A stretch of 64,000 bases of DNA from a virus. The position numbers and the translations under genes were made by a program. Each line of letters starts with the position of its first letter. Position 1 is the stretch's first letter. The DNA is taken from the IMG/VR virus record IMGVR_UViG_3300025133_000026. The stretch is one strand, 5' to 3'. A model generated the notes under the pieces. It saw only the letters and a program-made list of their open reading frames with translations. It had not been told where the DNA came from and ran no database searches. Shown here piece after piece: positions 30,763-61,892 of this stretch.

Positions 30763-33700
30763 TTGAATCTATCCTCATATTTCTTTCTCATAGCAAAACG
30801 AGAGTCTTCTATATTGAGACGAACATCATTTCTACTTTGACTAGATCTTACATCAGAGACCTCAAGGTCATAGTCTATGATACCAAAGTCAGAGGCTGTC
30901 TGGTCGATTATCCTACGAACATCGTTTGAATTTTCTTTTGGAGACATCATTTCATCAACCATCTCTTCATTGATGTATGGTTTTCTTGCAAGAAGCCTGA
31001 CATGACTATCCCAGAAACCAAAATCATGAATATCCATACCTTCAGACATTGCATACTTTAACTTAACATCCTCTAAGTCTACACCTGGATGAAAGCCCAG
31101 CCAAGAGCGGTCGGGAATGCCACCCTTTTCATCAAAATAAGCAATAACCTCAGCCGGGTCTGGTTGGTATGCGCTATAGGCTTCTTGTAGTCGTTCTAAT
31201 GTTGCTGTGTCTCCAGAAAGTTCAGCATCCATGCGAGCCCATTGGGCTTGATAAATACGTCTATAAGATTCTGGAATCAACTGCAGAATTTCTTCTCTTT
31301 CGCTTAATGATCGCGCTGAAGAAAATGCATCAAAATATTTTCTTTGTACTGCAGGGAGGGCTGCACGGATAATATTCTGATCACCAAAAGCATCAACGCC
31401 AGTTACTGTATTGCTTTGTAAACGAATATAATCTTGCGCCTTAGAGCTGTCTCCTTCATTCAAAGCATTTTTTGCTAGGAGATTCCACTTTAAATACTCA
31501 AGTTTATCAAAATGTTCTTCAACATCTCTTACATCTTGCAGATAAGAAGGTGCACCGAATCCAAGAAGCCCCCTAAAAGAATTAAAGGCAGGACGAACCC
31601 AGTCACGAATTGGCTTGTCCCAGAAAGCTAATTGAGTACCATGCATATGATATTGTTCATAATGCTCAACAGGGGTTTCTACCCCTGAGAGTAATTTACT
31701 GAATGGACGGAAGCCAAACGGGAACAGGTATTCGACTGGAGCAACAAGTTTTTTGAATGCAACTGTCCATCCTCTTCCGGCGCCACTAAAAAAAGCTTTT
31801 GCTTTTGTTTGCTCATTCATATCAGTGACTTGACCAAAAAGCTTATTTCTTCTATTCTTTAATCTTTGATCAATTCTATTCAGTTTAGCCAATGTAGCTT
31901 CGCTATAGATGCCAGCTTCAATTCTTCTATTGATTTGTGTTTCAACTGTTCTGAATTCAGAAGACCAATAGGCTACATCAGAAAGAATCTTGTATTTATG
32001 TTCAAGGGGATAGTCTTCTGGATTTAATCCTTCAAGCTCAGGGTGCAGGGCTGCATACCCAGGCCCAGGCATTCGCCCTTCTCCATATGGAATGTTATAT
32101 GGATCTCCCGTTCTCAAATCCTTTGGCAGCCAAGAAGGCATCGCATTTGGAATCGGGTTGTATTCTTTGATTTCAGAACCCTTTGCAGGGTAATATCGAC
32201 GAATAGCTTCCGAGGCAAACAGAAGACCGCCTAGTTCCATATCCCAAAATTTCTTACTAATGCTAGAAATCTGTTCTGCAGACTGGAGTCTTGTGTCTTG
32301 AGAGAATAATCTTGGATCTCCACCACTAGTTATTCCGACATAAGTCTGTTGTAAGAAACCAACCAAACCTGCTTGTTCACTGCTACTGTACAAGAAATCA
32401 GAAAATCGATTCTTGGGAGAGAAAGGAGAAACAGGGACAGCAGCGCCCAGACCGCCTAGTTCTGGAATTGGCGGTGTCGATAAACTATCGGGCGGATGGA
32501 GCATTTCAAGTTCACCAGATTCGCTTACTTGGACCCACTCTCCAAGATGCATTAGCTTGGGTGGTTTTAGAACCCTACCCACAGTAGACGCCAGAATCTC
32601 TCCAACAAAAGGAACATCATTAAAAGCAGTTGCCGTAATTGGGTATGGTCTGCTTTCATAATTGCGTCGCTCTAACTCATATGTAAAGTTCTTTAAAAAG
32701 AACTTTTGTAAAGGAGAAAGCTGGTCTTCTGTTACACCCCAAGCTGCTTTTTCAACAGCTCTTGACATCATTAATGGATACCAGTGAGGTTTGTGGTGGG
32801 TAATGTCAGCACCTTCATAAGGTGTTCCTCCAGCCTCCCAAAGCCTACCTCTTCTTACAGCAACTTGTTCGTCTCCGGAATAAAGTGCTTTTAATTCTTC
32901 TGGACTTTCTTTAGAAGCTAACTGACCTGTTGCAAGAGCCCATGCTCCTGCACCCGCTAAGAACCGAATAGCCCCGCCTCGCAATGGCAAATGTCGATTC
33001 TTCCACCAGATAGTGGATCTATTTAACTCTTCTAATAATTTTCCACCACCAGAAGTGAAGGCGGCCTTCGTTTGTCTCCACCCTTTACCAAGAAACCCGT
33101 CTCCTTGGTTGATATAATCTGCCCATCTTTCATCGATTGATTTTTGAAGTGCTATCCTTGGGTTCTCGCTAGAAAGACCATGAAGCATGTCTTGTTCTAC
33201 ACTATTCCAGGTTTCCTTCGCAGCATCGAGATAGCCTGTTAAAGTGGTTGGAGATCTGGTTCTCATTCGAGAAGCCCAGTCTCTCCATCGATCAAAATAA
33301 CCGTGAACTGGTCGTGTTTCTGATACAGCCAATCCTGCTGATCGAATAGCACTCTCTCCTACAAAGGTATTAAGCATTTTACGCCCACCAACACCAACAA
33401 CAAGACCGGCCAACAAAGCAGTTTCCGGTTTTGAGGCAATTGGATGAAGGGAGTCTGCTAATTCTCTGTGCCCTGCTCCGATAAAAGGCAATACACCACC
33501 AAAAGCATGAGACATATGTGATCTAAAAAGGTTTCCTCTGGTCAGGACTGTTCCAAGGCCCGGCAAAATACCTTCATCGAAAACAGGAGCAAGGGTAGCG
33601 AGCGCAGTACCTGCCCCAACCAAAGCAGAAACTCGAGGAGAAGCACTATAAGCACCTCTGGCAATAATACCAGTCATTGCACCATAAGCACCAGCAGAAA

Positions 33701-34718
33701 CAAAATTTCCTAGTTCGTCGTTTCTTCGAAGCCAGTCAGCCGTAGATAAGCCTAATCCGACAATACCAATCTTCGCGCCAAGCTTTGCATAACGCGCTTG
33801 CATGCTAAAGAAAGACCCCTCTTTAACAACCATATTAAAATTAGGAAGAAAAGAACCCAGGATAGGAACTTCTTCTATAAACGTAGAAACTAATTGATTA
33901 AGACGTTGGCTAGCAAACGCACCAACTGTTCGTGCGTACTGAAGAGCAAAACCAGTCCTTGGGCTCAATTCCCCAAAATGAGGAAGAGAGACGCGGGAAG
34001 AAGCAGGAACAAACTCAGGCAGCTGGCGGACTCTTTGTCTTTCTAATATTGCTAAGTCTTCCGCTCGACTTAAATTGACCTCGGCTTGTGTCCTTGGAGC
34101 CCCAGAATATGCTGATCTCTCTGAGGTTAATTGTTGATGGAGGTCTTCGTCAACAAGAGAAAGATGTGCCGCAAAGAATCTATCGTAAGAGGAGTTTAGT
34201 GGATCTCCTCTTCTTAGAAGAAATATGTTGTCTGCTAAAGTTCGGCCGTTGAGGGTTAGCCTTCCACTAAATTCACCGGTTCTATGAAACTGCATAGCGG
34301 CATCACGAGCATGGAAGCCACGAGCAGCCAATTGGGTTTCAGACATACCGGTGACTTGACTAATATATCTTGCTGTATTTCTTCTATTATTTCCAAGGAA
34401 ATTGGTAGCAATGTTTACGGTACCACCAACAATTTTTTCATGCTCAACAAACGGAGAGACAATACCTGGTAGTCTGAGGGTAGGACCAAAGAAAGGAATG
34501 GCTTGTTCGAAGCCAGCAAGGCCTCTGTAGAGCCACGTAAAGCCCGTATCGCCCTGATAGGTCTTACGTCCTGCTGCCCAGAGAGCAGCGCCTCCTGCAG
34601 CCGTCCAGGCCCCAGTACGCGCAACTTGGCCCCAAGGACTGGAACCCCCATACACAGTGGGCTCAGATGACCAAGTAGGTCTCTGAGCCCTTTGTTGGTA
34701 CTCTCTTGATACGGCCAT
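30759..34718 (-). CDS. Tape-measure / ejection protein candidate (1319 aa)
   Basis: Follows the tube genes and two chaperones; helical, Ala/Gly-rich with hydrophobic stretches; stop overlaps the RNAP-like gene start. Confidence 0.5.
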   Translation of the reverse strand: MAVSREYQQRAQRPTWSSEPTVYGGSSPWGQVARTGAWTAAGGAALWAAGRKTYQGDTGFTWLYRGLAGFEQAIPFFGPTLRLPGIVSPFVEHEKIVGGTVNIATNFLGNNRRNTARYISQVTGMSETQLAARGFHARDAAMQFHRTGEFSGRLTLNGRTLADNIFLLRRGDPLNSSYDRFFAAHLSLVDEDLHQQLTSERSAYSGAPRTQAEVNLSRAEDLAILERQRVRQLPEFVPASSRVSLPHFGELSPRTGFALQYARTVGAFASQRLNQLVSTFIEEVPILGSFLPNFNMVVKEGSFFSMQARYAKLGAKIGIVGLGLSTADWLRRNDELGNFVSAGAYGAMTGIIARGAYSASPRVSALVGAGTALATLAPVFDEGILPGLGTVLTRGNLFRSHMSHAFGGVLPFIGAGHRELADSLHPIASKPETALLAGLVVGVGGRKMLNTFVGESAIRSAGLAVSETRPVHGYFDRWRDWASRMRTRSPTTLTGYLDAAKETWNSVEQDMLHGLSSENPRIALQKSIDERWADYINQGDGFLGKGWRQTKAAFTSGGGKLLEELNRSTIWWKNRHLPLRGGAIRFLAGAGAWALATGQLASKESPEELKALYSGDEQVAVRRGRLWEAGGTPYEGADITHHKPHWYPLMMSRAVEKAAWGVTEDQLSPLQKFFLKNFTYELERRNYESRPYPITATAFNDVPFVGEILASTVGRVLKPPKLMHLGEWVQVSESGELEMLHPPDSLSTPPIPELGGLGAAVPVSPFSPKNRFSDFLYSSSEQAGLVGFLQQTYVGITSGGDPRLFSQDTRLQSAEQISSISKKFWDMELGGLLFASEAIRRYYPAKGSEIKEYNPIPNAMPSWLPKDLRTGDPYNIPYGEGRMPGPGYAALHPELEGLNPEDYPLEHKYKILSDVAYWSSEFRTVETQINRRIEAGIYSEATLAKLNRIDQRLKNRRNKLFGQVTDMNEQTKAKAFFSGAGRGWTVAFKKLVAPVEYLFPFGFRPFSKLLSGVETPVEHYEQYHMHGTQLAFWDKPIRDWVRPAFNSFRGLLGFGAPSYLQDVRDVEEHFDKLEYLKWNLLAKNALNEGDSSKAQDYIRLQSNTVTGVDAFGDQNIIRAALPAVQRKYFDAFSSARSLSEREEILQLIPESYRRIYQAQWARMDAELSGDTATLERLQEAYSAYQPDPAEVIAYFDEKGGIPDRSWLGFHPGVDLEDVKLKYAMSEGMDIHDFGFWDSHVRLLARKPYINEEMVDEMMSPKENSNDVRRIIDQTASDFGIIDYDLEVSDVRSSQSRNDVRLNIEDSRFAMRKKYEDRFK

Positions 34719-36536: not shown

Positions 36537-37226
36537 TTACCCCTTGTATTTGCTATAGGGGCCATCCCCTATTCCATAACTGTATTGGTTTTTAGCAGAT
36601 CTTCCAGTAGGAGTTTTTGTGACAGATAGTGTGCTATCTGTTTCAACACTGGCCACAGTAGAAGCCGCATCGTCTATATCTGGTTGGCGTTCTATGTCAA
36701 AGGCTTCATCTTGATGAAAGACAATAATGTCTCTAGCCTTGTATTGGTAAGTGTTTTCTGTGATCATATCTTCTACTGAAGTTACTATACCATCACTCAC
36801 TAGGTCCACACCAATAACTGCAAAGCTAGCGCGATGCCCCAGCTCACTAGCGTAGGTAATAATTAGATGAAAAGGAGGGATTTCATCAGGAAACATTAAA
36901 TTTGTTCCTTCTCTCCTTGGTCCACCAAAGCCTGCATCATAACTAAAATCATACTTGTACTCATTAAACAGGTCCCTGAGAGGATGATCTGCGAGGATAG
37001 TAGCTACAAGCGAACCCGCAATAACACGAGGGCCTCTGGTGTGTCCTTTAACATTTGTATATCCCAAAGCTCTCACAGGAGATTTCTCCCTAAAGATAGA
37101 GACAGAGACTGTCTGTAAGGACTGTAGAAAAACTAACCCTGTCTTTCCGGGTACTAGAGCATAAACTCTAGCATCAGTCCCGGAAAAAGACAGGGGGATG
37201 TTCTCTGTAAGAACACTAGTAGGCAT
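36537..37226 (-). CDS. Tail tube-like protein, paralog 2 (229 aa)
   Basis: FSGTD...LQTVSVSIFREKSPVRALG...RGPRVIAGSL...DEIPPF...SVEDMITENTYQYKARD. Confidence 0.75.
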   Translation of the reverse strand: MPTSVLTENIPLSFSGTDARVYALVPGKTGLVFLQSLQTVSVSIFREKSPVRALGYTNVKGHTRGPRVIAGSLVATILADHPLRDLFNEYKYDFSYDAGFGGPRREGTNLMFPDEIPPFHLIITYASELGHRASFAVIGVDLVSDGIVTSVEDMITENTYQYKARDIIVFHQDEAFDIERQPDIDDAASTVASVETDSTLSVTKTPTGRSAKNQYSYGIGDGPYSKYKG

Positions 37227-37231
37227 ATGAT

Positions 37232-37888
37232 TTAGTAGTGACCGATATTACCGTCAGTATCACGAAGACCGCCCGAAAGACGAGTCCAAGGGACAATTCC
37301 CCGGGCAACATAAGTCATTTGCATTTCGGACATAAGGTCATCGATAGAAATACCATAACCTTCGTTCAGAATCTCTACGCCTAGAACACGCATAATCATC
37401 AGTGTGCCTAATTCATTAGCTCCAGTCAGAACAACATCAAAGGGCGGGATTTGGTCAGAGTACCAAGGGGTAGCTGACTCTTGATCATCACCCGCTATAG
37501 TTGAATCCCCCTCACCACCGGGGTTAAGCCCATCGGTCACTCCGACAATACTCGAGTCAATGATTGTGTTAGATGCACCTGTTGAGGGGCGAATCTCCTC
37601 TTTGTCAGCTGCGAACTTGGAACTTGAAAAGATTCCTTGTACACCAACAAGAGCATGTGAATCGAATACAGCAAAAATCAATGTTCCTGCAATGCCGCGC
37701 TTACCGCGAGAGTAAGCACGAGGATCTGGATGCCCAAGCGTATAGATTGGAGCCTTCTCTCTCTGAACAGCATAAGAAATAGCCTGTAGGGGCAGGGCTG
37801 CTTTGTTATGGAAAACAGCCTTAATGTCTACGCCAGAAAGAGAGTTGTATGTATTTTCATAAGCATCACTTGAAGTCAAGGTCGGCAT
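37232..37888 (-). CDS. Tail tube protein (218 aa)
   Basis: Immediately after the sheath; LSGVDIKAVF...LQAISYAVQREKAPIYTLG...RGKRGIAGTL...DQIPPF...YVARGI. Confidence 0.8.
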   Translation of the reverse strand: MPTLTSSDAYENTYNSLSGVDIKAVFHNKAALPLQAISYAVQREKAPIYTLGHPDPRAYSRGKRGIAGTLIFAVFDSHALVGVQGIFSSSKFAADKEEIRPSTGASNTIIDSSIVGVTDGLNPGGEGDSTIAGDDQESATPWYSDQIPPFDVVLTGANELGTLMIMRVLGVEILNEGYGISIDDLMSEMQMTYVARGIVPWTRLSGGLRDTDGNIGHY

Positions 37889-46526: not shown

Positions 46527-48490
46527 TATGAATTCTCCTTGTCAGTTAGGTAATCCTTGATATCAAATCCAGAATCAATAAAGCCACGCTTCATCATGCT
46601 ATCAACATAGTTGAGCGCCGCCTCTTCATCCTGGTCATCACAAATTGAAGTATATCTCTCAACCACTAGCTGGCCCCATCTGTCAAGATTGTCGACAGTT
46701 TTTGCTGCCTTCTTTCCGTCTTGAGCAAGAGTAGGATCATCGAGAACAACTTCTGCTTTTTCTGTTTTTAGAATCTCAAGTTCACAGGCAGTCTTTAGAA
46801 GATCACCGACTGAATCTTTGAGTTCTTGAACATTCTTTTCCTTGAGACTGTCTTTGATGGCCTCAAGTCCTCCTTCAGTACCATTGAGTTTTTGAAGTAG
46901 GGAAACATGATCCGCGAGAAGAGTTTTGTACTCTCCCGAGATTTGCTCTAGCTGCTCATCAGCAGAGTCGGTTAGACCCTCCTGTGCAGTTAGTTGAGTT
47001 GCAAGCTGAGAAACTTGCTCCTCTAGAGCGGCGAGCTTATCGACCAGGGTGTTGAGGTCCGGAGCTTTCGCTACCTTTTCCTTTTCCTCTACGGCTGAAG
47101 TAAGCTGCGTAATCGCATCCTTAAGATCTTCAATCTCAAATTCTGAAGTACGCTTTAGTAAATCGGATAGTTCCATATCTAAATCGTCTTCCTTTGAATC
47201 TTTGTTAACTAGAACATATTCCCCGGTATCTTCTCCAGCTATGCTGAATTGATCCAAGGGACCATTGATCATCGCTCCGCGCAAACCTTTCTCCTCAAGT
47301 ATAGCATGAAGTTTTGCGTGAACTTTATATACATCTGTAGGCATTTGCTCTTTTCTGGATAAAGACCATTCGTCTTCTTCTCGAACTGTATTATCCCATT
47401 CCCAATGAAGACCATCATGGAATCTAAGCAAAGCCTGTTGTTCCATCATTGTCTCTCCATCGAATGCATCTTCCCAATTTACTTCGCGGCCCTCGTGTAG
47501 GTCTTTGTAAAGATCTAGGAGACAACTTTGAGTATCTGTCATTTGCTTAACTTCTACTTCTTTCTCTTCTTTGTCAGAAACAGAGAGACCATCAAGAACG
47601 TCAGTATTTGCCTGCTGTATGCCATCAACAACACCAGCACTATCAGTAATTGAAAGCAGCTCGTAAGGAGTCGATCGTAAATTGTCAGTATAAACCGGTG
47701 TAATTTCTTCAGCATTTTCATGTAAATCTACAATCCTCACACCTTCACTAACAGCCTCACTGTCTGCCGGAATATTTACAAAGGAGACCTCTTCGTATGA
47801 GAGATTTCCTGCGATAAGAAACATGGGCGCGCCATCAACCATTTCTCCAACATCATGCTCACAACGTCCATCACTAACCCAATCTGTTTTGCAACAAGAG
47901 CACACTGCGGCATCTGTGGCGGCGCGGGTAGACACAGTTTGGTAACGGCCATCAAGAACCTTTGTCATCGCGTCAGAGTCTGTCACTTGAAGTGTAGTTC
48001 GTCCAAACCCTAACCCCTGAAAGTCTTTAGAGAACAGAAGACCAGAGTGAACTAAAGATTCAACAGCATCGACAGCCTGCCACATTCTATTCATTGTGGG
48101 TAAAGCAGCTATAGCGTCCTTAACATCACTGTACTTGTCAGAAATACGACCAAACACTTCACCGGAAGTGTCTATATATTCTGCAGCGACTACACGACCC
48201 AAAGGAGCGTCATAAGTATTATGCTCTGTAAGAACAGGCTTGTTGAAGGATGATGTTCCTCCTCCGTCTTTGGAAACAAAGCTTTTGATACCGTCTCTCA
48301 TTTTTGCAGGCAAGTACAAACCATTGTTTCGGGTGATGCGAGCAGCGTGCGTTGCTCGTACAGTAATCTCTACTCCAGTACCCGCCCGGACAAAAGAATC
48401 AATCATATGAAGCTTTTGGTCCTTGTCCCATTGTTTTTTGAGGTCAGGGTTTAAGAGAATGGAGTCATAAATGTAAATTTTCTTAGCCAT
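46526..48490 (-). CDS. Prohead protease fused to scaffold (654 aa)
   Basis: KPVLTEHN...PLGRV, KVLDGRYQTVS, CSCC...CEH, YEEVSFVNIPAD; acidic coiled-coil C-terminus. Confidence 0.8.
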   Translation of the reverse strand: MAKKIYIYDSILLNPDLKKQWDKDQKLHMIDSFVRAGTGVEITVRATHAARITRNNGLYLPAKMRDGIKSFVSKDGGGTSSFNKPVLTEHNTYDAPLGRVVAAEYIDTSGEVFGRISDKYSDVKDAIAALPTMNRMWQAVDAVESLVHSGLLFSKDFQGLGFGRTTLQVTDSDAMTKVLDGRYQTVSTRAATDAAVCSCCKTDWVSDGRCEHDVGEMVDGAPMFLIAGNLSYEEVSFVNIPADSEAVSEGVRIVDLHENAEEITPVYTDNLRSTPYELLSITDSAGVVDGIQQANTDVLDGLSVSDKEEKEVEVKQMTDTQSCLLDLYKDLHEGREVNWEDAFDGETMMEQQALLRFHDGLHWEWDNTVREEDEWSLSRKEQMPTDVYKVHAKLHAILEEKGLRGAMINGPLDQFSIAGEDTGEYVLVNKDSKEDDLDMELSDLLKRTSEFEIEDLKDAITQLTSAVEEKEKVAKAPDLNTLVDKLAALEEQVSQLATQLTAQEGLTDSADEQLEQISGEYKTLLADHVSLLQKLNGTEGGLEAIKDSLKEKNVQELKDSVGDLLKTACELEILKTEKAEVVLDDPTLAQDGKKAAKTVDNLDRWGQLVVERYTSICDDQDEEAALNYVDSMMKRGFIDSGFDIKDYLTDKENS

Positions 48491-50615
48491 TCTTAATTCC
48501 TACAGAACACTTACAGTTTGGGTGATGAGGAGGAATATCGGCAATTGATACCTTTTTGACTTTCAACTTCACATCACTAAAGTTAGAACACTCTTCACAA
48601 TCAGACTCACTAGCACTATTATACACAGTTTCTATATTCTGGCTTCTGTAACCCATTAGTTTTCCATAGTTATAAGATCTAGTTAATTCAGTATTGTAAA
48701 TAGCGTTAAGCCGCCCCTTCGAAATATCAAGAACAGAAGTATCGGAGTCGGTCATTTTGTATTTTTTAGCTCTACGAGATATATCATCCCTAAGCTTAAG
48801 AAGATAGTGGTCGAGATAAGTTTCTACTGTCTTGAAACCTGTTACAACAACTGTATCTGTCAGGCTTAAGCCACTTGCCCTAACTCCGTTTCTGAATTCT
48901 CTAGCGGCGAGCGCTTTAAACTTGTCAGTAAGGTCACGATGCCAGGCATCGATAATCCGATCAATCCATGCTTCCGACGCGCTGGTATTCTTGTAAAAAA
49001 GAACATCAGATTTGATAACTTGGAAAGACTCATTGATTAAATTATCAATAAAGTCTTTATTTGTTTTCGGTCCTGTTCTAGTACCGTGCTGATTCGCTGG
49101 CCTGTTGCGTGCGGCTCCAGAACGTTGTCCACTTGTCTTGCCACTTGCTGGGGCAACTTTCTTTGCCTGTTGTTCTTGCTTAGCACGCTGATCACCCTTA
49201 GAGACATTCCCTGATTGCACTGCAGTTGAATTATTCTCTGCAGCAACTTCAGGTAAATATCTTTCATCAATAGATTGAATAATTAGCTCAGGCTCTTGAA
49301 TGAGTTTCCAATAAGTCTGCTCCCACCACTCTTCGTCTTCTGGAGTTTTTGGATCATGTCCAATCGCAACCCGAAGTTCATCAAAGTTGATAGCGTGCTG
49401 AGTGAAGAGCTGAACCATGTGGTTTTGCCAAGCAATCTTCTGGTCTTTGTTAATCTCCTTGAACTGAAGGTGAACCATTTTGTCAGAATCAGTGATGTCG
49501 AGACTACCTTCCAGCATAAGTTCTTGAATTACAAAATAATCAAACTGAGCTTCAAAATCATCCTGAATATCTTTAACCTCGTCTCTTAGGTTTTGAGACA
49601 TGGTATCAGCAGTGGAACGATTGCTTGTGCCGCCTTCTCCAAAGTCAACAGTTGAAACACCGAGACCAGCAAAAACCCTATCTCTAAAGTGCTTCAGGTA
49701 TCCCTCCGCACGTAAGGCTCGGCCCTCAGAACCAATAAGAGAAATGCTATGTCGTTCTGGAGTAACAATCATTCCCTCTGGGGGCATGTATTCAATTTCT
49801 TGCTGAACAACATCAATCTCTGAACTGCCGTCAGGGTATATTACAGCAGGATCGTTGTCTGTTCCGACCTGATACTGAAACAAAGGAAATAGGTTTTGAT
49901 AAACAAGAAGATCAATATTTTCTTCAATACGACGTAGAGTACGAATGTCATCGATGACTGGAGTCAGGAGTGGTGTACCCGTAGCAAAACCTGTCTTTTT
50001 GTCAATATAGAAGTGCACAACATCATTCGGAGAGAATTCTTTTTCTTTCCCCTCTACGGTTTGTTTGTATTTGATTACTTTTCCGTATTCGTTTCTTTTG
50101 ATCTCCACGGTTTCAGGAGGCATTATAAAATAACCGGCGACGGGTTTCAGGGAAGAACCTCCAATACGTCGAGCTTGGCCAGAAGAAATCTTTGGGTTTC
50201 TTGCCTTCACCAAGTAAGCGTTGGACTTTGTCACAAGATCATTGATGATTTCTTTTAGAAGAATTCTCCATGGCTTACCTTGGGCAAAACCTGTTTCTAA
50301 CATCCTCCTATTGACATAAGCCAAAGCATCTTGGTCTTTGGCTACTAGGTCCCAGCCCTCCTTGAAGGCAAGTCCTCTTTTCTTCCTATGTGTTTGTCTT
50401 ACATAGGCCTCGACATCCTCAATTCTATTAATCTCTTCAAGATCATATTCGGGCTGAGCGAAAGAATTGCGAGACCCATAAGACCTAGCGGGGTCAGATA
50501 TACGCTTCTGCATTGCCGGCTTCAGTTTCCCTTTTGGATTTTCTTCAGCATCGGACATTGTAAATGTAGAAGAGACTATATTGACCTTTATCTTGTTGTC
50601 AGTAGATTCAAGCAT
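48483..50615 (-). CDS. Portal protein with C-terminal MuF-like domain (710 aa)
   Basis: FIMPPETVEIKR, DVVHFYIDKK.GFATGTPLL.PVIDDI..LR portal motifs; C-terminal C..C...PPHHPNCKC. Confidence 0.85.
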   Translation of the reverse strand: MLESTDNKIKVNIVSSTFTMSDAEENPKGKLKPAMQKRISDPARSYGSRNSFAQPEYDLEEINRIEDVEAYVRQTHRKKRGLAFKEGWDLVAKDQDALAYVNRRMLETGFAQGKPWRILLKEIINDLVTKSNAYLVKARNPKISSGQARRIGGSSLKPVAGYFIMPPETVEIKRNEYGKVIKYKQTVEGKEKEFSPNDVVHFYIDKKTGFATGTPLLTPVIDDIRTLRRIEENIDLLVYQNLFPLFQYQVGTDNDPAVIYPDGSSEIDVVQQEIEYMPPEGMIVTPERHSISLIGSEGRALRAEGYLKHFRDRVFAGLGVSTVDFGEGGTSNRSTADTMSQNLRDEVKDIQDDFEAQFDYFVIQELMLEGSLDITDSDKMVHLQFKEINKDQKIAWQNHMVQLFTQHAINFDELRVAIGHDPKTPEDEEWWEQTYWKLIQEPELIIQSIDERYLPEVAAENNSTAVQSGNVSKGDQRAKQEQQAKKVAPASGKTSGQRSGAARNRPANQHGTRTGPKTNKDFIDNLINESFQVIKSDVLFYKNTSASEAWIDRIIDAWHRDLTDKFKALAAREFRNGVRASGLSLTDTVVVTGFKTVETYLDHYLLKLRDDISRRAKKYKMTDSDTSVLDISKGRLNAIYNTELTRSYNYGKLMGYRSQNIETVYNSASESDCEECSNFSDVKLKVKKVSIADIPPHHPNCKCSVGIKNG

Positions 50616-53260: not shown

Positions 53261-53880
53261 TATCTGTTAATCCTATTCATTTTCTTGGATTGATTAGAAG
53301 AGCCCAGCAGGGAGTGTGCAGCAGAAGCACCGACACCAGTGGCTGCAGCTAATCCTGTTCCTGTTCCTCCAGCTGCCCATGCAATCATCGTTGAGTATCC
53401 TCCACGTTGCTGTTGTTTAGAAAGTAAATTTACACGCCGGCGAGCAGTTTTTTTTACTATCATCTTTCTGTATTGTCCTGAGAGAGTTTTCCTTCCTACT
53501 CCAGCACCAATAGCCCCCATTGTAAAGTTAAGGAGTCCAGAATCGGTTGGGCTCATAAAAGTATTCGCAAGACCACCAACAGCCATTGTCGTAATCATAC
53601 CACCATGTGTTGCCCAAATACTTTGATGGTTTTTGTGCATAAACCTCATGGCTTGTCCTCCAGCTTTCCAGGCCGGTCGCGCATATTTTAATGCGCTAAC
53701 GCCAAGAGCTGTTTTGGCTCCCATACTAGCGCCAGAAACAAAGCCAGTTCCAAACTTATCGTTCCACACACCAGCCGCAAAGCCGCTCGCGAGTCCGGTA
53801 CCTAGAGCGGCACCAGCCGTAACGATTCCAGTTTTTATACCTGCTTGAACAATACTTCTGCTTACAATAGGAGAAATCAT
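53260..53880 (-). CDS. Gly/Ala-rich basic hydrophobic protein, possible ejection/internal head protein (206 aa)
   Basis: Composition; Gly-zipper-like helices. Confidence 0.4.
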   Translation of the reverse strand: MISPIVSRSIVQAGIKTGIVTAGAALGTGLASGFAAGVWNDKFGTGFVSGASMGAKTALGVSALKYARPAWKAGGQAMRFMHKNHQSIWATHGGMITTMAVGGLANTFMSPTDSGLLNFTMGAIGAGVGRKTLSGQYRKMIVKKTARRRVNLLSKQQQRGGYSTMIAWAAGGTGTGLAAATGVGASAAHSLLGSSNQSKKMNRINR

Positions 53881-56800
53881 TAGATCTTACCTCTCTTGGG
53901 CTTCCCTCTTCTTCGAATACCAGAAGATCTAGAGGTAGCTTTCTTAGTGTGTTTCCATTCGGTATCCGAACCCCATCCGGATCGAATGGTACCAGCATGG
54001 CCTTGGGGGGTCCTTTCAAAAGACCTTCCTCCAGGTTGTGCTTGTCTTCGTTGATGTTCTCTCTGTTGAACGTAACCAGGATCATAATTTACTTCTAAAA
54101 ACCCTGGCATCCCGGCACCGCCAGGAAAGTTCTTTTTAAAGTCATCCATTGCCTCTTTCGGCAGCGGACCATCATTATTAGCAAACCTTGCGCCGATGCC
54201 CTCTGTAAAGCCAACATTTGGACTACTCATAAGTCGGGGTGCATAATCAGACATCTCTAAAATATAAGCGATTAGGGCAAGATTAAGAGCATCGAGTCGG
54301 TGATCTCCAACCTTCGCATCGTTCATGCCATACCTTGGAATACCAGTAGGACTGATCCCGTCTTGAATGTAATTTAAAAGCTGTTTGTGAAGAGTAATGT
54401 CTTTATAAGAAAAACGAATTCTTCCTTGTTCGAATTGTCGGACTGAGTTTTGGATAAGAAAAGCCTTTGCATGTGTCTTCTCTCTTCTTCTTGTTACAGG
54501 ATTTCTGTATTCAACCTTACTTCCGAAATCATAAGCCTTTAGACGATCATAAAGAGCAGCACCTTCCGATCCTGGGTTCACAAACCTTTGTTTATGAGAC
54601 CATGCTTGCAAGGATTCAATCTGCGACCCGCCATAACCTCTATCGACATAGATGAATTTGGGAGACCACTTTTGATTCAAATCAATAATGACTTCCATTG
54701 CTTTGTGCTGTTGATAATTTTGTTTAGAGATATTGACAGCTTCAACTACCCAGAATTCAAAGTCTGGTGCATCAGGGTTTAGTCCAGTTACAACTACCTC
54801 TACTCCTGCATTTGTGTTCCAATCAACACCTATAGAGTAAATCCAAGACGGTTCTCTGCGATTAAGAGAATACTTCTTATCTCCAACTGTTACCTTTGCT
54901 ATCTGTCCATAAGAATATGGCTTCTCTGCTTCTGCAACATGGCGTGGAGAATACATACCAGCAACCTGGTCAATAAATACAGCCATGTATTCTTGCATGA
55001 AGGAGGTTTCGTCGGTTCCCTCGGCTTCAATTTCATCTTTAACTTGATCCCAGTGATCAAGGACCGTAGACGGAAAGTAGAATTCTTTGACATGTGCTGA
55101 GCCTGTGCACTGGTTATAGAACCACTCTCTCTTACCTGTAGGTGTACTGGAGGACATAACAGCAACATCCGGTGTTGTCGCCTGGATAGGCTGAACAACC
55201 TGCTTAATGTCCTCTGCAGGCATGAAGTCGGCCTCGTCAAGAAGGATGAGATCTGCCGAATTGTGGACCACAACTCCATCATTAACTATAAAGTTGTGTG
55301 TGCCCCAAACCTCTATATCATAAAGTGTATCAACCCCTTTGCTTTTGATAGACTTGATAGCATCATAACGAAGATCATTAAAACTCATATTCGGAAAGCC
55401 CGCACTGTTTGCTAACGATAAGATTTCTTTAGACTTTTCTTCTTTCCCAGGAATAAGTCCGATAGACTTTAGAAGTCGCTTTGCTTCATTCACAGAACGG
55501 ATAGTAACCACATATTGTCTTTTGTGTTTCTTGCCCTTTAGGTATTTTTCTCTAGTTCGTAAAGTTCCGAAAACACCAAAGCTGGTCACTAGTTGCAAAA
55601 ACTGAGAGGCCAGATCACAACTTGTAGATGTAAACCCTATCTCAACTTGTTTGTTCTTAGCAACAAGCCAGCCATCTGTAGCTATTAGGCCTCTTAATAG
55701 AGCTGCTCTAACTGCAGGACCAGAGGCCAGGAGCTTAGAAGACAACTTCTTCTCTGGGGCTAGACTTCCCCATATTCCAGCATCGTCTAAAAGCTCTGCA
55801 ATTTCTATATTTCTAGTTCGTGGTGCCTTGATACGAATATCAACTGCTTTTGAGTTTTCCTTTTGGTAACTACTCCAGTCTACGTCCCAATTATCGAGAA
55901 TTGAACAAAATAAAGATTCGATTCTTTTATTAGCGACAGTAAATCTAACCGAACTGTGTTTTATAGCTTTTCTTCCACAACTTCCATCACCAGCCATTAG
56001 GCCAACAAACAGTGCTTCCTCTTCTGTGAAATGAACACCCTGTTTGTCAAGAGTGAAATTCTTTACTGTAGCAAGATGATTACTCTTTTTTAAATCTTTC
56101 AGTTTATTCCAAGAAAAGGTAGATTTCCCTAATTCAGAATATTTCTTTCTTATTCCTCGAGTAACAGTGCTGCTCAGAAGCCTGTGATCTTTTGAACAAA
56201 CAAGACTTCGGCCAGAGCGTAACCGAACTTCATATTTTTCCTTCTCTGTAGTATCAAACACTTTGGAAACCATAGAGGTGACTACCTTTCCATTGTTTGT
56301 TACAGAGAGGATGAGGTCATTCTTCTCGATATTAGAAATCTTCTTTCGTGACCCATCGGCCATCCAAACAAGAGTTTCTCCAGAAAGACACTGTCCACGA
56401 AGAGTGGACGCATTCTGTCCTGTACTAGCTCCTGTGGTGAAGCCCTTGATTGTTGCACCATTAGTAAAGACAAGCTCATGATAGGGAGTCTTTACGTTCC
56501 TCACAAGCTTAATGTCTGGATTTCTCGAAACAAGCTTCTTGATCTCTTCGAAAATCATAGAGATTTGAGCCAAGAATGGAGATACAACTAAAATCCGAGG
56601 GCCTCTCATGATCGGGGTGCCAGCGGCATCCACCTCATCACTTTTAACATAGGCGGTAATTGCTTTTCTAAGAGTAGAGACACACTCTTCGAATGTCTTT
56701 CCAGAACGCCGGCCAGCTCTCGATACTCTGTATTTTGCGGTACATTTAGCGACCACCCTCTGGTGATCACGAAAGTCTACACCCAGGACTTTTTTAGCCC

Positions 56801-57407
56801 AGAGGACAGGGTCTCTTACAATTCTCAATTGTTCTATTTCTTCTTCTGTCAGTTCTTTGACTAGTTCTCTTTTTAAATCATAACTTTCAGGAATAAAATC
56901 ACACTTGACAAGAAAGGCAGTTAATGCTTTCCAAGGAATCCATCCTTCGATCTTCTGGGTTCTGCTCGAAAAGCCACCCTTGCATGTCTGGCATACAGCA
57001 TCAGAGATTTGTTGCTTACTTTCTCGATAGACCCTTGTGTGGTCTTGGTCATTTTGACAAATACCATAATAAACAGAAGTTCCCACCAAGCATTTGTCTT
57101 TGTGCTTTTCTTTCAGAATTACTCTCTGGCCTTTGCGCAGTCGCCCAATCTTTTCTTTGAATTGATCATCCCCAAAAACGTTTACTCCCCTTACAGAAAT
57201 TTGGTATTCATTCCTTCCAGCATATTTTTGCAAGTGATCCATCTGACAAACTACACAGGAATTGTCAATATTCTTCGTTTTAATATTGTATTTTTCTTTG
57301 AAAAACTCTACCAAATCAGAACTAGGACGCATAGAATAGTCTAGGTAAGCTACCCCGTATTCGTTCTCCATGTAAAGATATTTCATATCCTCGTGAAGAT
57401 AGTCCAT
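53880..57407 (-). CDS. terL: Terminase large subunit with intein (1175 aa precursor)
   Basis: Walker A VSRAGRRSGKT; Walker B LILLDEA restored after splicing; FMQEYMA; nuclease IGVDWN and DHRLDAL. Confidence 0.95.
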   Translation of the reverse strand: MDYLHEDMKYLYMENEYGVAYLDYSMRPSSDLVEFFKEKYNIKTKNIDNSCVVCQMDHLQKYAGRNEYQISVRGVNVFGDDQFKEKIGRLRKGQRVILKEKHKDKCLVGTSVYYGICQNDQDHTRVYRESKQQISDAVCQTCKGGFSSRTQKIEGWIPWKALTAFLVKCDFIPESYDLKRELVKELTEEEIEQLRIVRDPVLWAKKVLGVDFRDHQRVVAKCTAKYRVSRAGRRSGKTFEECVSTLRKAITAYVKSDEVDAAGTPIMRGPRILVVSPFLAQISMIFEEIKKLVSRNPDIKLVRNVKTPYHELVFTNGATIKGFTTGASTGQNASTLRGQCLSGETLVWMADGSRKKISNIEKNDLILSVTNNGKVVTSMVSKVFDTTEKEKYEVRLRSGRSLVCSKDHRLLSSTVTRGIRKKYSELGKSTFSWNKLKDLKKSNHLATVKNFTLDKQGVHFTEEEALFVGLMAGDGSCGRKAIKHSSVRFTVANKRIESLFCSILDNWDVDWSSYQKENSKAVDIRIKAPRTRNIEIAELLDDAGIWGSLAPEKKLSSKLLASGPAVRAALLRGLIATDGWLVAKNKQVEIGFTSTSCDLASQFLQLVTSFGVFGTLRTREKYLKGKKHKRQYVVTIRSVNEAKRLLKSIGLIPGKEEKSKEILSLANSAGFPNMSFNDLRYDAIKSIKSKGVDTLYDIEVWGTHNFIVNDGVVVHNSADLILLDEADFMPAEDIKQVVQPIQATTPDVAVMSSSTPTGKREWFYNQCTGSAHVKEFYFPSTVLDHWDQVKDEIEAEGTDETSFMQEYMAVFIDQVAGMYSPRHVAEAEKPYSYGQIAKVTVGDKKYSLNRREPSWIYSIGVDWNTNAGVEVVVTGLNPDAPDFEFWVVEAVNISKQNYQQHKAMEVIIDLNQKWSPKFIYVDRGYGGSQIESLQAWSHKQRFVNPGSEGAALYDRLKAYDFGSKVEYRNPVTRRREKTHAKAFLIQNSVRQFEQGRIRFSYKDITLHKQLLNYIQDGISPTGIPRYGMNDAKVGDHRLDALNLALIAYILEMSDYAPRLMSSPNVGFTEGIGARFANNDGPLPKEAMDDFKKNFPGGAGMPGFLEVNYDPGYVQQREHQRRQAQPGGRSFERTPQGHAGTIRSGWGSDTEWKHTKKATSRSSGIRRRGKPKRGKI
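55260..56390 (-). mobile_element. Intein with LAGLIDADG homing endonuclease (377 aa) in terL
   Basis: N-splice LRGQ/CLSGETLVWMADG; C-splice YDIEV...NFIVNDGVVVHN/SAD; LAGLIDADG blocks FVGLMAGDGS and LLRGLIATDGW. Confidence 0.95.
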
Positions 57408-58195
57408 TAAATTCCTCTGAAACTTGAGATTGCTTGATATGAAGCCTCTTGTCCAAAAGCACTTCTTGCATTGATGTGAGAGCGTTGAATAGCCTGCACA
57501 CTTCTTTGTCTCATCGTCGTTGCGCCTCTGGTCTGGAAACTAGCTAGACTGCCAGCCGTTTCTAATGGAAGCTTACTCTTCCTGTACATTGCACTTCGAC
57601 TTGTCTGTGAGGTTATAAAACCAACCCCCATTGTCGTCATAGCGGCTGGGAGCAGCACAGTCCCTGCAGTGCGGAGCGCCATTGGACCCATAGAGCGCGC
57701 CGCCGCCTGAACCTTGCCTGCTTTCCAGGCGTTTACCAGTCCAACGACCGCGTGCTCTCCAACAGCGGCCCCGACAATACCCTTTCCTAGGCCTTGTCCA
57801 GCTCCAATGAAGCCACCCTCTCGGTAGCCCTGTACGGTACTTCCTGCCAGGAACAAAGGACCAGCTGCAGCTCTTAGTCCAGTGCCTGCAACCCCCATGG
57901 CGCGCTGGCCCCAGGTTGAGCCTGCCCAGGTTCTACCTGTTTTAAGGCCAACAGTAATCGGGCCGGGATCTCGAAGATTTGAAAGGCGGAAGGCTTCCTG
58001 CGCAGTCGGGAATCGCCCCATAAGAGTTGCGATACCTGGCTCAAGCGCCTTTCCAATATGACTAAAAGCTACCTTTCCTGTCTGGGGCATATGGCTCTGG
58101 TAGGCTGCTTTTACTTGACGCCATTGTTGAGGATTGGCTATTTCTTCTCCCGCCGCCATTCCTGCGGCCCCGAAGCTGGATGCCCAATCACTCAT
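57407..58195 (-). CDS. Gly/Ala-rich basic protein, possible ejection/internal head protein (262 aa)
   Basis: Composition; C-terminal TMRQRSVQAIQRSHINARSAFGQEA. Confidence 0.45.
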   Translation of the reverse strand: MSDWASSFGAAGMAAGEEIANPQQWRQVKAAYQSHMPQTGKVAFSHIGKALEPGIATLMGRFPTAQEAFRLSNLRDPGPITVGLKTGRTWAGSTWGQRAMGVAGTGLRAAAGPLFLAGSTVQGYREGGFIGAGQGLGKGIVGAAVGEHAVVGLVNAWKAGKVQAAARSMGPMALRTAGTVLLPAAMTTMGVGFITSQTSRSAMYRKSKLPLETAGSLASFQTRGATTMRQRSVQAIQRSHINARSAFGQEASYQAISSFRGI

Positions 58196-58704
58196 TATCT
58201 ACCCCCTCTCCGGAGCTTATTTAAAGCAAGTGGAAGACCTTGTGTTCCTCCACTGCGATTTCTTCTCAATCTTCTTCTTGAGAAGGTCATCATCTCTGCT
58301 TGTTGAAAGTTAGCTGCTCTTCTTGACTGAAGCATTGTTTTTCCCAACTTATCTAGGTGTTTTGCCATAGCATAGTTTTGTTGAGAGCCTGTTGCTGTAC
58401 CACTGAATAACGCGTAGCTTGATGTTCCCACCATGGCGGTGCCAGCAACTCTCCCCACCCATTTGTTTTGGCTACCTGTTAAAAAGTGTCTTGTTCCTGT
58501 GCTTGCAAAATTGTAACCTTCCATAGCCCCACCACCAACATGATCAGCTAATTCTTTCGAATATCTTGCTCCTGTCTTTGCATGACCATAGCCTGCTGTG
58601 AGTGTTCTCTTTCCAACATTATATCCTGTTGTGAGTGCTCTTTTTCCAGCACTACCCCAGGCGGTCGCTTTTGTCGCCCCACTTTTTATCCAACCAAACA
58701 TCAA
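58195..58704 (-). CDS. Small Gly-rich basic protein (169 aa)
   Basis: ORF track; short internal repeat KRALTTGY/KRTLTAGY; Arg-rich tail. Confidence 0.45.
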   Translation of the reverse strand: MMFGWIKSGATKATAWGSAGKRALTTGYNVGKRTLTAGYGHAKTGARYSKELADHVGGGAMEGYNFASTGTRHFLTGSQNKWVGRVAGTAMVGTSSYALFSGTATGSQQNYAMAKHLDKLGKTMLQSRRAANFQQAEMMTFSRRRLRRNRSGGTQGLPLALNKLRRGGR

Positions 58705-60794
58705 CTACCTCCTTTTGAATGTCCTATAGGGGATTTTAACATGCGCAATGCAGCATCCTTCTGAAGACGAGACATCTTCTGTTTTCTAAGGTTTGTTTTT
58801 CTTAGAAGATTTTGTCTTCGAATCTTCTCTGGGTCATTGCCCAATAGATTCATTCTTCTTTTTATCGGCTTTTCAAGAAGTGTTTTTCTTACCCCAAGCC
58901 CGCCCGGCAGTGGCGGCAATTTGTTTAATTCCTCTGCCGCTGTCTTGGCTGCTCTCCTGATGGGTTCGGGGTAAGTTTGAAAACTATCTTTGTTTTTTCT
59001 AAAAAAGGATAAAAGGAATCCCTTTATTTGGCTTGACACCCCCTCAGACCTTAATTCTTTTCTAAACTGAGGGTAGCCACCAAAAATAAATCCTCTTTCT
59101 TGTTCTTGTCCAACAAGTGCTAAAAATTCATGATGAGCTGCAATACCAGACTCTGTTGAGTTTCTGGTTTTTGTATTCCAACGCCAAGCATCTTCAATGA
59201 TTTCACTGATGTCGGCATCTTTGACAAAACCCTCTAGGAAAGTTTCTTCCCTGGCTCCAGTGCGTTTTCTAGGCTGACTCCAAAAATGTTCCCTTACTTT
59301 TTGGTGCACTCTTTCATGGGCAATAATTTGCCTGAGCTCTTCTCCTCGAAGATCTTTTCTGATTAATGAAAAAGTATTAAATCCAGACTTTTCTGCTTCG
59401 AAAATGGAAGAGAACAAAGAAGAAACTTCTTCTTGTAGTTTGCTGCCTTGCTTTACATCTACTTCCGATAATCGTTTTTTTAAGGTTGGCAATAAAAAAG
59501 ACAGACCCTTTGACCCTTTTCCTAAAGCTAAGCGTTGTGATAATTCTATAGAAATGGAACTTATCCCTCTCCAGCCACTACCAAACTCTGTCATCCCTTT
59601 ACGCATACCCTGGGCCCAGCCCTTATGGCTAAGCCCCTCTAGAGTATTGCGATTACTCTGGTGTCCAGAAAACGCTGCTCTGTTATGTCCACCTCTCGAA
59701 AGATTACCGAGAGACTCAAAGACAGAAAGATCTTCTGTAGTCATATATCCTTTAGCTTCGATATCCCATAGACTAAACATAATTTCAGCTTGAGTCTTAT
59801 CTTCTGCTAACCGATTCATAAGAGTATAAGTATTGAAGGTTGTGTGCTTTCCTGCTCTCTTGTCTACCTTCTGTTGGGCTTGCCAGAAGGCATGCCCCCA
59901 CATTCCCTTTTCTGTCTCGATCGCCTCGTTCCATTTTTTATAGAAGTTGCGTCTATCGATAATGGATTGTTCTGCTCTACCAAAAGGCAAATAAGACGCA
60001 GAGCCCTCGCCAACAAGACGGAGGTTGATATTCTGTCCTTGTTCGTCATAGACAACACCAACGGCACGTCCATAAGTCTCATCTTCTGGATCAAAGATAA
60101 TTGTAATATTATCTTGACTGTCAAGTATTTCCTGGAATCTTTCTCCAGCATTCTTTCCATATGGCTGGCCCCCAGCAATACGAACAGGAGACATTGGGTC
60201 AGAGTCGTGAGACTCTACTTCGGGAGCATCAATACCAGCAAGACGAATAGAGACTGCTTTTCCTGTCGGAGTTCCGAGGAGTCCTCTTTTCTTAATGAGC
60301 AGGGTGTCTGCATCTTCCGCTTTTAGTTCGTATTCGTCTTTATTCAGGGTTACATAATGAAGATCTTTCTTTGTTCCCTGGTTCAAACCTTCCCAAGTGC
60401 CGTATTCTTCATCATGAAGAGCAAGAGGCCCAAGAGTGTTGATAGAAGCAAGTTGCAGTCTTGCTTCTCGTTGCTTGGATTCAATTTCTTGTTCTAGCAA
60501 ATATCTGCGAGCGGGATCTTGCCAAATAGTTTTTTGGAATCTTTTCAGCTTCGCCCTTGGATCATCTGAGTTATAAACACCAATAATAGCGTTATATAAG
60601 CCCTGCCAGCCACTGCCAAATTGAGAATTTACTTTTCTCATAGCAGCAGCCATGCCTCCATGGATGAGGCCACTTATTTGCAGATGAGAATCTCCCCGCG
60701 TAGCGGGGCGGCGCACCTGTTCCCAAGCGTCGATCATTGTGCTCGCGCCTAGTATTTTCCCTTTTCGATTTTCATGATTAATCCAATTGAACAT
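58701..60794 (-). CDS. Polyvalent-type protein: SNase (thermonuclease) domain plus HExxH metallopeptidase-like domain (697 aa)
   Basis: DADT...RLAGIDAPE...TYGRAVG...NINLRLV.EG.A (SNase); IIAHERVH (59304-59318) with downstream HEFLA; two FGSGW-ending repeats. Confidence 0.75.
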   Translation of the reverse strand: MFNWINHENRKGKILGASTMIDAWEQVRRPATRGDSHLQISGLIHGGMAAAMRKVNSQFGSGWQGLYNAIIGVYNSDDPRAKLKRFQKTIWQDPARRYLLEQEIESKQREARLQLASINTLGPLALHDEEYGTWEGLNQGTKKDLHYVTLNKDEYELKAEDADTLLIKKRGLLGTPTGKAVSIRLAGIDAPEVESHDSDPMSPVRIAGGQPYGKNAGERFQEILDSQDNITIIFDPEDETYGRAVGVVYDEQGQNINLRLVGEGSASYLPFGRAEQSIIDRRNFYKKWNEAIETEKGMWGHAFWQAQQKVDKRAGKHTTFNTYTLMNRLAEDKTQAEIMFSLWDIEAKGYMTTEDLSVFESLGNLSRGGHNRAAFSGHQSNRNTLEGLSHKGWAQGMRKGMTEFGSGWRGISSISIELSQRLALGKGSKGLSFLLPTLKKRLSEVDVKQGSKLQEEVSSLFSSIFEAEKSGFNTFSLIRKDLRGEELRQIIAHERVHQKVREHFWSQPRKRTGAREETFLEGFVKDADISEIIEDAWRWNTKTRNSTESGIAAHHEFLALVGQEQERGFIFGGYPQFRKELRSEGVSSQIKGFLLSFFRKNKDSFQTYPEPIRRAAKTAAEELNKLPPLPGGLGVRKTLLEKPIKRRMNLLGNDPEKIRRQNLLRKTNLRKQKMSRLQKDAALRMLKSPIGHSKGGS

Positions 60795-61082: not shown

Positions 61083-61892
61083 CTATTCATCATCAAAAAC
61101 ACTGAGTTCTTCGTATTCTACATCTAGAGCTTCAAGCTTTTGAATCTTCTCACTGAGTTCACTCATAGTCTTGGCAACATCAGTCTGCCAGCCTTCGTCT
61201 CCTTGCTTTAGCTTGGCTCTTGCATCTATCTTGTCTTTCCTGGTTGCAACCATAGACTTAAGGAGGTCTTGACGCATTCTATGAATCTTCTCTTTGAGAT
61301 CAAAGGCAGGGTGAATCTTAAGAGTAGTAAACTCCTCTTTGGTTATTGGGTCTTGCCCAATAGTCTCTTCTCTTAGAAGAGAACCTGCTTCATCTTTAGC
61401 TAGGAGTGCAGAAGCTCTGTAGTCGTAGATATCTAATGTAGCTATCTTAGTAACTATGGCTAAGTCTGTAGTATTCTCGGGGTTGATCTCGAACTCTTTA
61501 ACGAGGTCCATTATGTGAAGCTGAAGAATCTCTCTTTCGACAGGACATGCCCGCGCTAGAGGGAAGTGTGTGCTATTAAAGTCTGTCTGGTTAGTTGTGG
61601 GATCTTTCACCACTAAAGGACACTTATGAATAACCGGGCATTTGGGACCTGCACATATAAGAGGGACAACAGCATGCAAACCAGTCCTTAAACTAATTAT
61701 ATGATTCCGATATCTTTCTGCAGTTTCAGCATCCATGGGTACATTGTCATACTTGTCCATAGATAGCCCCAGGAACTTGTAGAACTGGTCTTTGTCTACT
61801 GCCCTTACCTGTGTAAGGTCTTTACTCACGGAGGCGATAGAGAGGGTACTGAGAGCTTCCTGTGGGGTGTTCTTGTTGTCGTCTTTACTCAT
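61083..61892 (-). CDS. Possible terminase small subunit, Cys-cluster protein (269 aa)
   Basis: ICAGPKCPVIHKCPL...CPVE, helical body and C-terminal coiled coil; upstream of terL. This is inference from synteny only. Confidence 0.35.
   Translation of the reverse strand: MSKDDNKNTPQEALSTLSIASVSKDLTQVRAVDKDQFYKFLGLSMDKYDNVPMDAETAERYRNHIISLRTGLHAVVPLICAGPKCPVIHKCPLVVKDPTTNQTDFNSTHFPLARACPVEREILQLHIMDLVKEFEINPENTTDLAIVTKIATLDIYDYRASALLAKDEAGSLLREETIGQDPITKEEFTTLKIHPAFDLKEKIHRMRQDLLKSMVATRKDKIDARAKLKQGDEGWQTDVAKTMSELSEKIQKLEALDVEYEELSVFDDE

Follow-up and report, generated by a model that had tools for sequence, protein, structure and literature searches.

A conserved joint peptide at the domain borders of polyvalent proteins in uncultured phages

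A 64,000-nucleotide stretch of DNA from an uncultured virus (IMG/VR record IMGVR_UViG_3300025133_000026; referred to here as the window) encodes a 697-amino-acid (aa) protein, P0001, in which a nuclease and a predicted peptidase are each preceded by a copy of the same peptide, which we call the joint. This arrangement raises the question of why one peptide should recur in front of unrelated enzymes in a single chain. A preliminary description of the window had proposed that the peptide delimits unrelated enzymatic domains, as in phage polyvalent proteins, and that it is a packaging, processing, or translocation tag as well as a recombination point for swapping effectors. The analyses below support that the joint is an autonomous unit at the borders of varying domains in hundreds of phage proteins, and they bear to different degrees on what it may do.

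The joint as a repeated, autonomous unit

The gene and the parts of its product are as follows.

58701–60794, minus strand: gene for the two-cassette polyvalent protein P0001 (697 aa); open reading frame (ORF), translated
60588–60695, minus strand: joint copy 1, aa 34–69; profile match of 44.0 bits, predicted local distance difference test (pLDDT) score of 30–40
59688–60569, minus strand: staphylococcal nuclease (SNase) cassette, aa 76–369; identified by Pfam, AlphaFold2, and Foldseek, with the whole cassette alignable with 12 homologues
59553–59675, minus strand: joint copy 2, aa 374–414; profile match of 56.0 bits, pLDDT of about 30–40
58875–59549, minus strand: HExxH cassette, aa 416–640, a probable small zincin-like metallopeptidase predicted by profile, alignment, and weak Atlas leads
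58704–58874, minus strand: basic C-terminal tail, aa 641–697, ending in ...SPIGHSKGGS, a variant of a family-wide C-terminal signature

The cores of the two joints lie at aa 40–65 (ISGLIHGG...FGSGWQG; window 60600–60677) and aa 385–410 (LEGLSHKG...FGSGWRG; window 59565–59642) and are identical at 14 of 26 positions. For scoring, we used a profile of 53 copies from other phages, from which the rows of the window had been removed. With this profile, copies 1 and 2 obtained the scores given above, compared with 2.6 bits for the next best six-frame match in the window and 8.0 bits for the best of 2,000 shuffles of P0001. The repeat noticed in the preliminary description is therefore genuine, and the conserved unit exceeds the 26 aa originally delimited, extending over about 36–40 aa. 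Copy 1 is an "HLQI" variant of the YNTI segment of the joint and sits 12–31 residues from the N terminus of P0001; an alternative start is possible at Met20 (60737), and a 678-aa form (P0002) is on record.

In metagenomic homologues of P0001, one or two copies of the motif adjoin a domain that is an SNase, an RNase T-type exonuclease, or an ABC1/RIO-type kinase. With a degenerate DNA pattern describing the motif, we retrieved 63 IMG/VR loci with 112 copies in 55 ORFs and a maximum of five copies per protein. Using a profile of 55 joint copies (alignment A1) against 1.84 billion representative proteins (protein clusters), we identified 615 matching clusters at E ≤ 1e−3, including 159 at E ≤ 1e−30, with one to seven joint copies per protein in proteins of about 400–2,454 aa. 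The consensus of 481 copies from 163 proteins is [FI]SGKDDxYNTIEGLxHxGxAxxxRKxxTDFGSG[WY]xG, in which Asn11, Gly15, Gly20, Arg26, Phe32, Gly33, and Ser34 are conserved at 95–99%, and the proteins that carry it are otherwise about 11% identical. Neither P0001 nor a consensus-like joint had a tblastn match among 50,697 GenBank phage records. Profile searches returned no meaningful match to the joint in PDB sequences, and scans of the 55 copies gave no consistent Pfam family. In a pattern scan of bacterial and archaeal genomes, none of the 120 matches listed was a true joint, the best being one marginal match at 18.9 bits, and their number was approximately that estimated for chance. A search of the phage literature found no paper mentioning FGSGW.

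The preliminary description also reported a weaker echo of the motif (FTGLSQGMGAARR) in front of the exonuclease in an RNA polymerase (RNAP)-like protein (aa 197 of the ORF at 25300–30762); the motif profile did not detect it even at E ≤ 100. We therefore reject the echo. The RNAP-like protein has no similarity to the joint family, and its exonuclease is unrelated to the N-terminal exonuclease domain found in the family.

The distance between successive joints has a median of 230 aa and is mostly 150–300 aa, i.e., the size of one domain, and 26 joint pairs are less than 50 residues apart. Based on single-linkage BLAST clustering, in which true families may have been merged or split, the segments between joints in the 163 proteins fall into at least 132 families, the order of which varies between proteins. 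Pfam recognized ABC1/RIO/APH-type kinases in 15 of 37 joint proteins (about 40%) and SNase in 11 of 37; among the segments, most of which match nothing, there were also DEDD exonucleases, a single Zn peptidase, and a weak match to DnaJ. No stand-alone cassette genes adjoined joint proteins in the sampled loci. In an AlphaFold2 model of aa 20–425 of P0001 based on a 13-sequence alignment, both joints had pLDDT values of 30–40, with a short helix only over GxAxxxRK. Pairwise identity between joints was 0.50 for copies sharing no neighbor family, 0.55 for copies with the same upstream family, 0.54 for copies with the same downstream family, and 0.54 for copies within one protein. Because identity is nearly independent of the neighbors, the joint belongs to neither flank and is not homogenized within a gene. 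Because codon choice for Gly at the invariant positions does not depart from background, the joint is conserved as a peptide and not as a DNA site.

Spacing, content, structure, independence, and level of selection all indicate that the joint is an autonomous unit and not a piece of a folded domain. As judged from the sequences, one common standard applies to every copy, whatever its neighbors. The proposal that the motif delimits unrelated enzyme domains in the manner of polyvalent proteins thus holds for hundreds of phage proteins with varying cassette order, and the possibility that it is confined to this locus and part of one fold is contradicted by the 615 clusters and by the location of the joints outside the confident fold. 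The suggested role as a recombination point is not supported at the DNA level, given the background codon usage, although cassette order does vary between proteins.

Tandem joints 20–40 residues apart are present in P0019, P0030, P0035, P0043, P0045, P0066, and others. They are separated by a recurring mini-spacer, ..DDxAYxxxR.., which may represent either a very small cassette or a spacer that has its own role.

The two cassettes and the C-terminal tail of P0001

The first cassette contains an SNase core (Pfam PF00565; E = 1.3e−14, 55 bits versus a cut-off of 21) at aa 183–299 (window 59898–60248). In the AlphaFold2 model, this cassette folds as one unit consisting of a helical lead-in, the SNase core, and a helical tail (aa ~76–369), with pLDDT ≥90 over most of its length. 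In Foldseek, it had template modeling (TM) scores of 0.80–0.82, by target, to staphylococcal nuclease structures (1stn, 1ey4, and others). D163, R184, D189, E192, and R243 are invariant across 13 homologues, and we take these residues to correspond to the Ca-binding and catalytic residues D21, R35, D40, E43, and R87 of the Staphylococcus aureus enzyme. We conclude that the SNase part is a regular member of the staphylococcal nuclease family, with the catalytic D/R/D/E/R set intact as originally noted.

The second cassette contains HERVH at aa 493–497 (window 59304–59318) and a conserved Glu534 within EDAWRW (window 59178–59195). A Gly residue, the H-E-x-x-H motif, and Glu534, about 37 residues beyond the second His, are invariant in a five-sequence alignment (A7), and the H, E, and H of HExxH are invariant when this alignment is taken together with 28 cassettes from the family. 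The latter represent a small cassette of about 180–250 aa with a TIxHERxHQ signature that recurs in many family proteins (32 of 163), and a profile of the 28 aligned with about 150 residues of P0001 at a score of 33 bits. In a gluzincin-like peptidase, Glu534 would be the candidate for the third metal ligand. Counting all three kinds of HExxH-type cassette, 38 of 141 complete family proteins have one.

Other approaches were less informative for this cassette. For aa 416–697, neither phmmer nor a region search yielded a homologue, and Pfam gave no match; a profile search with the HExxH cassette had no meaningful match in PDB sequences; and a search for related loci with the HExxH part returned only itself. 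ESM Atlas leads for this part were all weak (DA1-like and M56 at TM 0.31–0.33, by query; LPD23 in 18% of the members of one cluster), and AlphaFold2 on a shallow alignment gave a pLDDT of 43.5 and no usable fold. The earlier peptidase label is therefore supported by the match to a recurrent HExxH-plus-Glu cassette but not by Pfam or a fold model, and we regard it as plausible on sequence grounds that the C-terminal cassette is a metallopeptidase. We rejected the alternative that the C-terminal part is kinase-like, as suggested by similarity to P0016, because this similarity is driven by the joint alone. We note that a pattern scan with TIxHERxHQ added one true family locus, while most matches were to an unrelated small membrane protein. 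This almost identical 150-aa protein, which carries TIRHERIHQKQ and is unrelated to the joint family, is very abundant in viral contigs of 25–70 kb (L186–L241, including those of IMG/VR sample 3300045988); it is possibly a small metallopeptidase of the membrane.

The C terminus of P0001 (...SPIGHSKGGS) resembles that of its nearest relative (...SPINHHRGGS). Family members have in common a signature, [NS][GAP]G[KRQ][GKR]H, in a basic tail regardless of which cassette comes last. This signature (as in NGGKGH or NAGRKH) is located 10–25 residues before the end and was seen in the C termini of P0017–P0165 and in ORFs of L001–L063; in the window, the corresponding positions are 58704–58733 (minus strand). 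A second tail type in the family ends in ...NWTxHHxG. The shared C-terminal tail may be a second, terminal signal.

Genomic setting and a second carrier of the joint

The window is part of the genome of an uncultured marine myophage of the jumbo type with an intein-bearing large terminase (TerL), a portal, a major capsid protein (MCP), and a tail sheath. Its terminase is 22–31% identical to those of Acinetobacter phage ME3, Moorella phage MTATph1, and Bacillus phage 0305phi8-36, which are jumbo myophages, and related complete IMG/VR records are 191–215 kb. Around the P0001 gene, we identified the following features.

61083–61892, minus strand: upstream neighbor, 269 aa, TerS-like (weak lead), with four invariant Cys; 25 loci, alignment A5, Atlas Terminase_4 lead
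57407–58195, minus strand: Gly-rich downstream neighbor, 262 aa, with a conserved C-terminal TMRQRSLQA...RSALG.EA; 33 loci, alignment A4
53880–57407, minus strand: large terminase with intein, marking where the packaging and head module begins; domain matches
48483–50615, minus strand: portal; PHROG match (phrog_9232, E = 5.8e−55)

The gene order is fixed: TerS-like protein, joint protein, Gly-rich protein, TerL, two small proteins, a 464-aa protein, and portal, with MCP further downstream. Accordingly, the joint gene is always found between the TerS-like gene and TerL. The four Cys of the 269-aa neighbor are arranged as CxGxxCPFxxxCP...C, and a profile search with this protein gave nothing meaningful in PDB sequences. 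The 262-aa neighbor is glycine-zipper-like, lies directly upstream of TerL in the 33 loci, and had no match in Pfam, PHROG, or PDB.

In a second set of phages, a protein of ~1,650 aa carries one joint within its N-terminal third. The gene for this protein follows those for the sheath, tube, and chaperones, in the tape-measure position. The window encodes a homologue of it, a 1,319-aa tail-module protein (30759–34718) that itself has no joint. The ~1,650-aa carriers (in L010, L019, L023, L031, L034, L046, L049, and L052) have an extra N-terminal region with the joint variant ITGLxxxGxxxxxRHxLTDFGSG[WY]. In five complete genomes of ~200 kb, the joint occurs only in the terminase-proximal chain and/or in the protein at the tape-measure position, i.e., in one or two proteins per genome, and one complete 204-kb genome encodes both kinds of carrier. 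Both carriers are encoded where virion-internal, ejected proteins are encoded. Neither joints nor submotifs were found in the MCP, the portal, the candidate scaffold region, or other structural proteins of the window.

Three side observations concern the structural genes. The intein of the terminase (aa ~336–716) comprises Hint/Intein_splicing and LAGLIDADG homing endonuclease domains, and the terminase domains follow it. The C terminus of the portal (aa 622–705) is MuF-like (PF04233, 25 bits, below the cut-off). Finally, a 218-aa protein adjoining the tail sheath (37232–37888, minus strand) matches the PHROG category "major head protein" (phrog_9206, E = 4e−41) and has a paralogue at 36537–37226; its position and the paralogue suggest that it is of the tail-tube type and that the label is misleading.

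Possible functions of the joint

P0001 combines an SNase and an HExxH cassette in one chain and is encoded by a phage gene beside packaging and virion genes, and the architectures of its relatives are mosaic. The best explanation is that P0001 belongs, as a small representative with two cassettes, to a large family of polyvalent cargo proteins in uncultured myophages of the jumbo type. In polyvalent proteins as defined by Iyer, Burroughs, Anand, de Souza, and Aravind in 2017, several unrelated enzymes for conflict and host takeover are likewise combined in one chain that is encoded beside virion and packaging genes, is mosaic, and includes metallopeptidase domains, for which proteolytic release of parts was proposed (PMC5512222). 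In contrast to the family described here, that paper does not report a conserved interdomain peptide; "linker" occurs 0 times in it and there is no FGSGW-type motif. The joint family also differs from polyvalent proteins in having no MuF anchor in the chain, a repertoire of its own (exonuclease, SNase, and ABC1/RIO kinase), and the shared C-terminal tail. We note that the MuF-like domain is here on the portal, while in polyvalent proteins MuF usually anchors the cargo chain itself.

A peptide that is long, extremely conserved, unstructured, and independent of its context suggests that a single partner recognizes all copies. Since all joints share their sequence whatever their neighbors, we infer that this reader acts in trans. 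Based on these considerations, we put at about even the chance that the joint is a trans-read signal for loading polyvalent cargo into the virion and/or for processing it. In such a scheme, chains of domain-sized cassettes (DEDD exonuclease, SNase, ABC1/RIO-like kinase, HExxH peptidase-like, and many without a known family) would be linked by joints that are read by one common factor, most likely as a combined signal for virion incorporation and proteolytic processing. Each enzyme between two joints would then be loaded with the particle, in the head or the tail lumen, and be released separately before or after ejection into the host. Joint 1 fits the role of a tag for the cassette downstream of it because it is well conserved although no cassette-sized segment precedes it. 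Actual cleavage at the joints seems to us somewhat less probable than the signal function as such. We advance more tentatively still the specific idea that the joint is a portable address-and-cut signal with one phage-encoded reader for both the enzyme chain and the protein at the tape-measure position, in effect a naturally occurring plug-and-play system for cargo in jumbo phages. If so, the content of the cassettes could vary freely because any protein between joints would be loaded and released.

Such a function would resemble that of the capsid-targeting sequence (CTS) of T4, except that the joint is internal and repeated. The T4 CTS targets unrelated proteins to the head and is removed by cleavage afterwards, and it has been used to load staphylococcal nuclease (PMC9026906); ejection proteins of giant phages are likewise processed (PMC5694885). 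If our interpretation is correct, the likeness to the T4 internal proteins (IPI–III and Alt, with the gp21 prohead protease) would be that a short portable peptide sends unrelated enzymes into the particle and is coupled to cleavage (PMC9026906, PMC5694885). The CTS is 10–20 aa long, N-terminal, and single, and it has the cleavage consensus of the head proteins. The joint, in contrast, has about 36 aa, is internal, is repeated up to seven times, is absent from head proteins, and has an unrelated sequence, and it is thus distinct from a T4-type signal. The ejection bolus of phiKZ-like phages (SPN3US gp47/53/54 and phiKZ gp86, with S/A/G-x-E processing) is similar in that these are jumbo myophages with processed inner proteins, there including an RNA polymerase. 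These ejection proteins, however, are encoded by separate genes, carry long propeptides at the N terminus, and are cleaved at a 3-residue motif; none is a cassette chain with a long common joint. Pretoxin motifs of polymorphic toxins (VENN of CdiA, PT-TG, and the DPxGL end of the Rhs core) resemble the joint in forming a conserved border before an exchangeable enzyme domain that is tied to its release, but polymorphic toxins are bacterial, secreted, and have one junction before the C-terminal toxin. We know of no sequence similarity between these junction motifs and the joint.

Several observations weigh against a signal for loading and processing. No cultured phage with the motif was found among the GenBank phage records searched, and no prohead protease was identified in the window. 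The 36 conserved residues far exceed the needs of any known protease site. Because the joint is absent from the head proteins of the window and present in one or two proteins per complete genome, it is not a general cleavage site of head maturation. Because an HExxH-type cassette is present in only 38 of the 141 complete proteins, a built-in protease is not the general reader. For packaging alone, moreover, one tag per protein would be enough.

Alternatively, the joints might only dock the chain, acting as multivalent bind-and-fold peptides that hold it uncut in the particle. Their partner could be the inside of the capsid, the portal and its MuF-like end, the tail lumen, or the Gly-rich neighbor. 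Long, highly conserved, disordered motifs are typical of such peptides, avidity would increase with tandem copies 7–40 aa apart, the C-terminal domain of the portal is MuF-like, and the virion RNAP of N4 is packaged unprocessed (PMC5512222). Yet docking leaves unexplained why joints stand regularly at every domain border and why the single copy in the 1650-aa proteins at the tape-measure position separates an N-terminal domain from the rest; we consider it unlikely that docking is the sole function. Cutting at the joints could also be carried out in cis by the HExxH cassette (aa 416–640) itself. This cassette, with its HExxH and Glu, directly follows joint 2, HExxH-type cassettes recur in the family, and autoproteolytic release by such domains was proposed by Iyer et al. 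(PMC5512222). The cassette is, however, found in only 32 of 163 proteins, and any HExxH type in only 38 of 141 complete ones; in addition, its zincin-like fold is putative, and it may be one more effector. Self-processing in cis is accordingly improbable in our view.

We assign a similarly low probability to a role after injection, in which the joints would bind a conserved host molecule or serve as regulatory sites, e.g., with Ser/Thr of TDFGSG being phosphorylated by kinase cassettes, and so tether or switch the enzymes in the host. Consistent with this idea, Ser34 and Thr30 are invariant in the 481-copy set, about 40% of the proteins have kinase cassettes, and the motif is solvent-exposed and disordered. 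On the other hand, many members, including P0001, have no kinase cassette, and the joint hardly varies although the host range is probably broad. Least probable is that the joint is a passive linker, a recombination scar, or part of a duplicated folded domain, all of which the data already disfavor. While the widely differing cassette order among relatives might suggest a linker or scar, seven positions are conserved at ≥95% in the 481 copies whereas the remainder of the proteins is about 11% identical, codons of the invariant Gly residues are at background, and copies in the same protein are no more alike than copies across proteins; a duplicated folded domain is at odds with the position of the motif outside the confident AlphaFold2 fold. 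Overall, we favor the signal function in virion loading and/or processing.

Neither the 2017 survey nor the literature that we found describes the joint, the way it recurs at every border, or its occurrence in two classes of cargo. While polyvalent proteins are known, how their parts are separated, loaded, and exchanged is not, and the joint offers an explicit, conserved, and disordered border element. Its presence in hundreds of uncultured jumbo-type phages, in two kinds of presumed virion cargo, makes the idea of polyprotein processing testable. The joint is also a sequence marker for new phage-delivered enzymes, since most of the cassettes between joints have no known family. If it is portable, the joint could serve to load foreign proteins into phage particles, as has been done with the CTS of T4.

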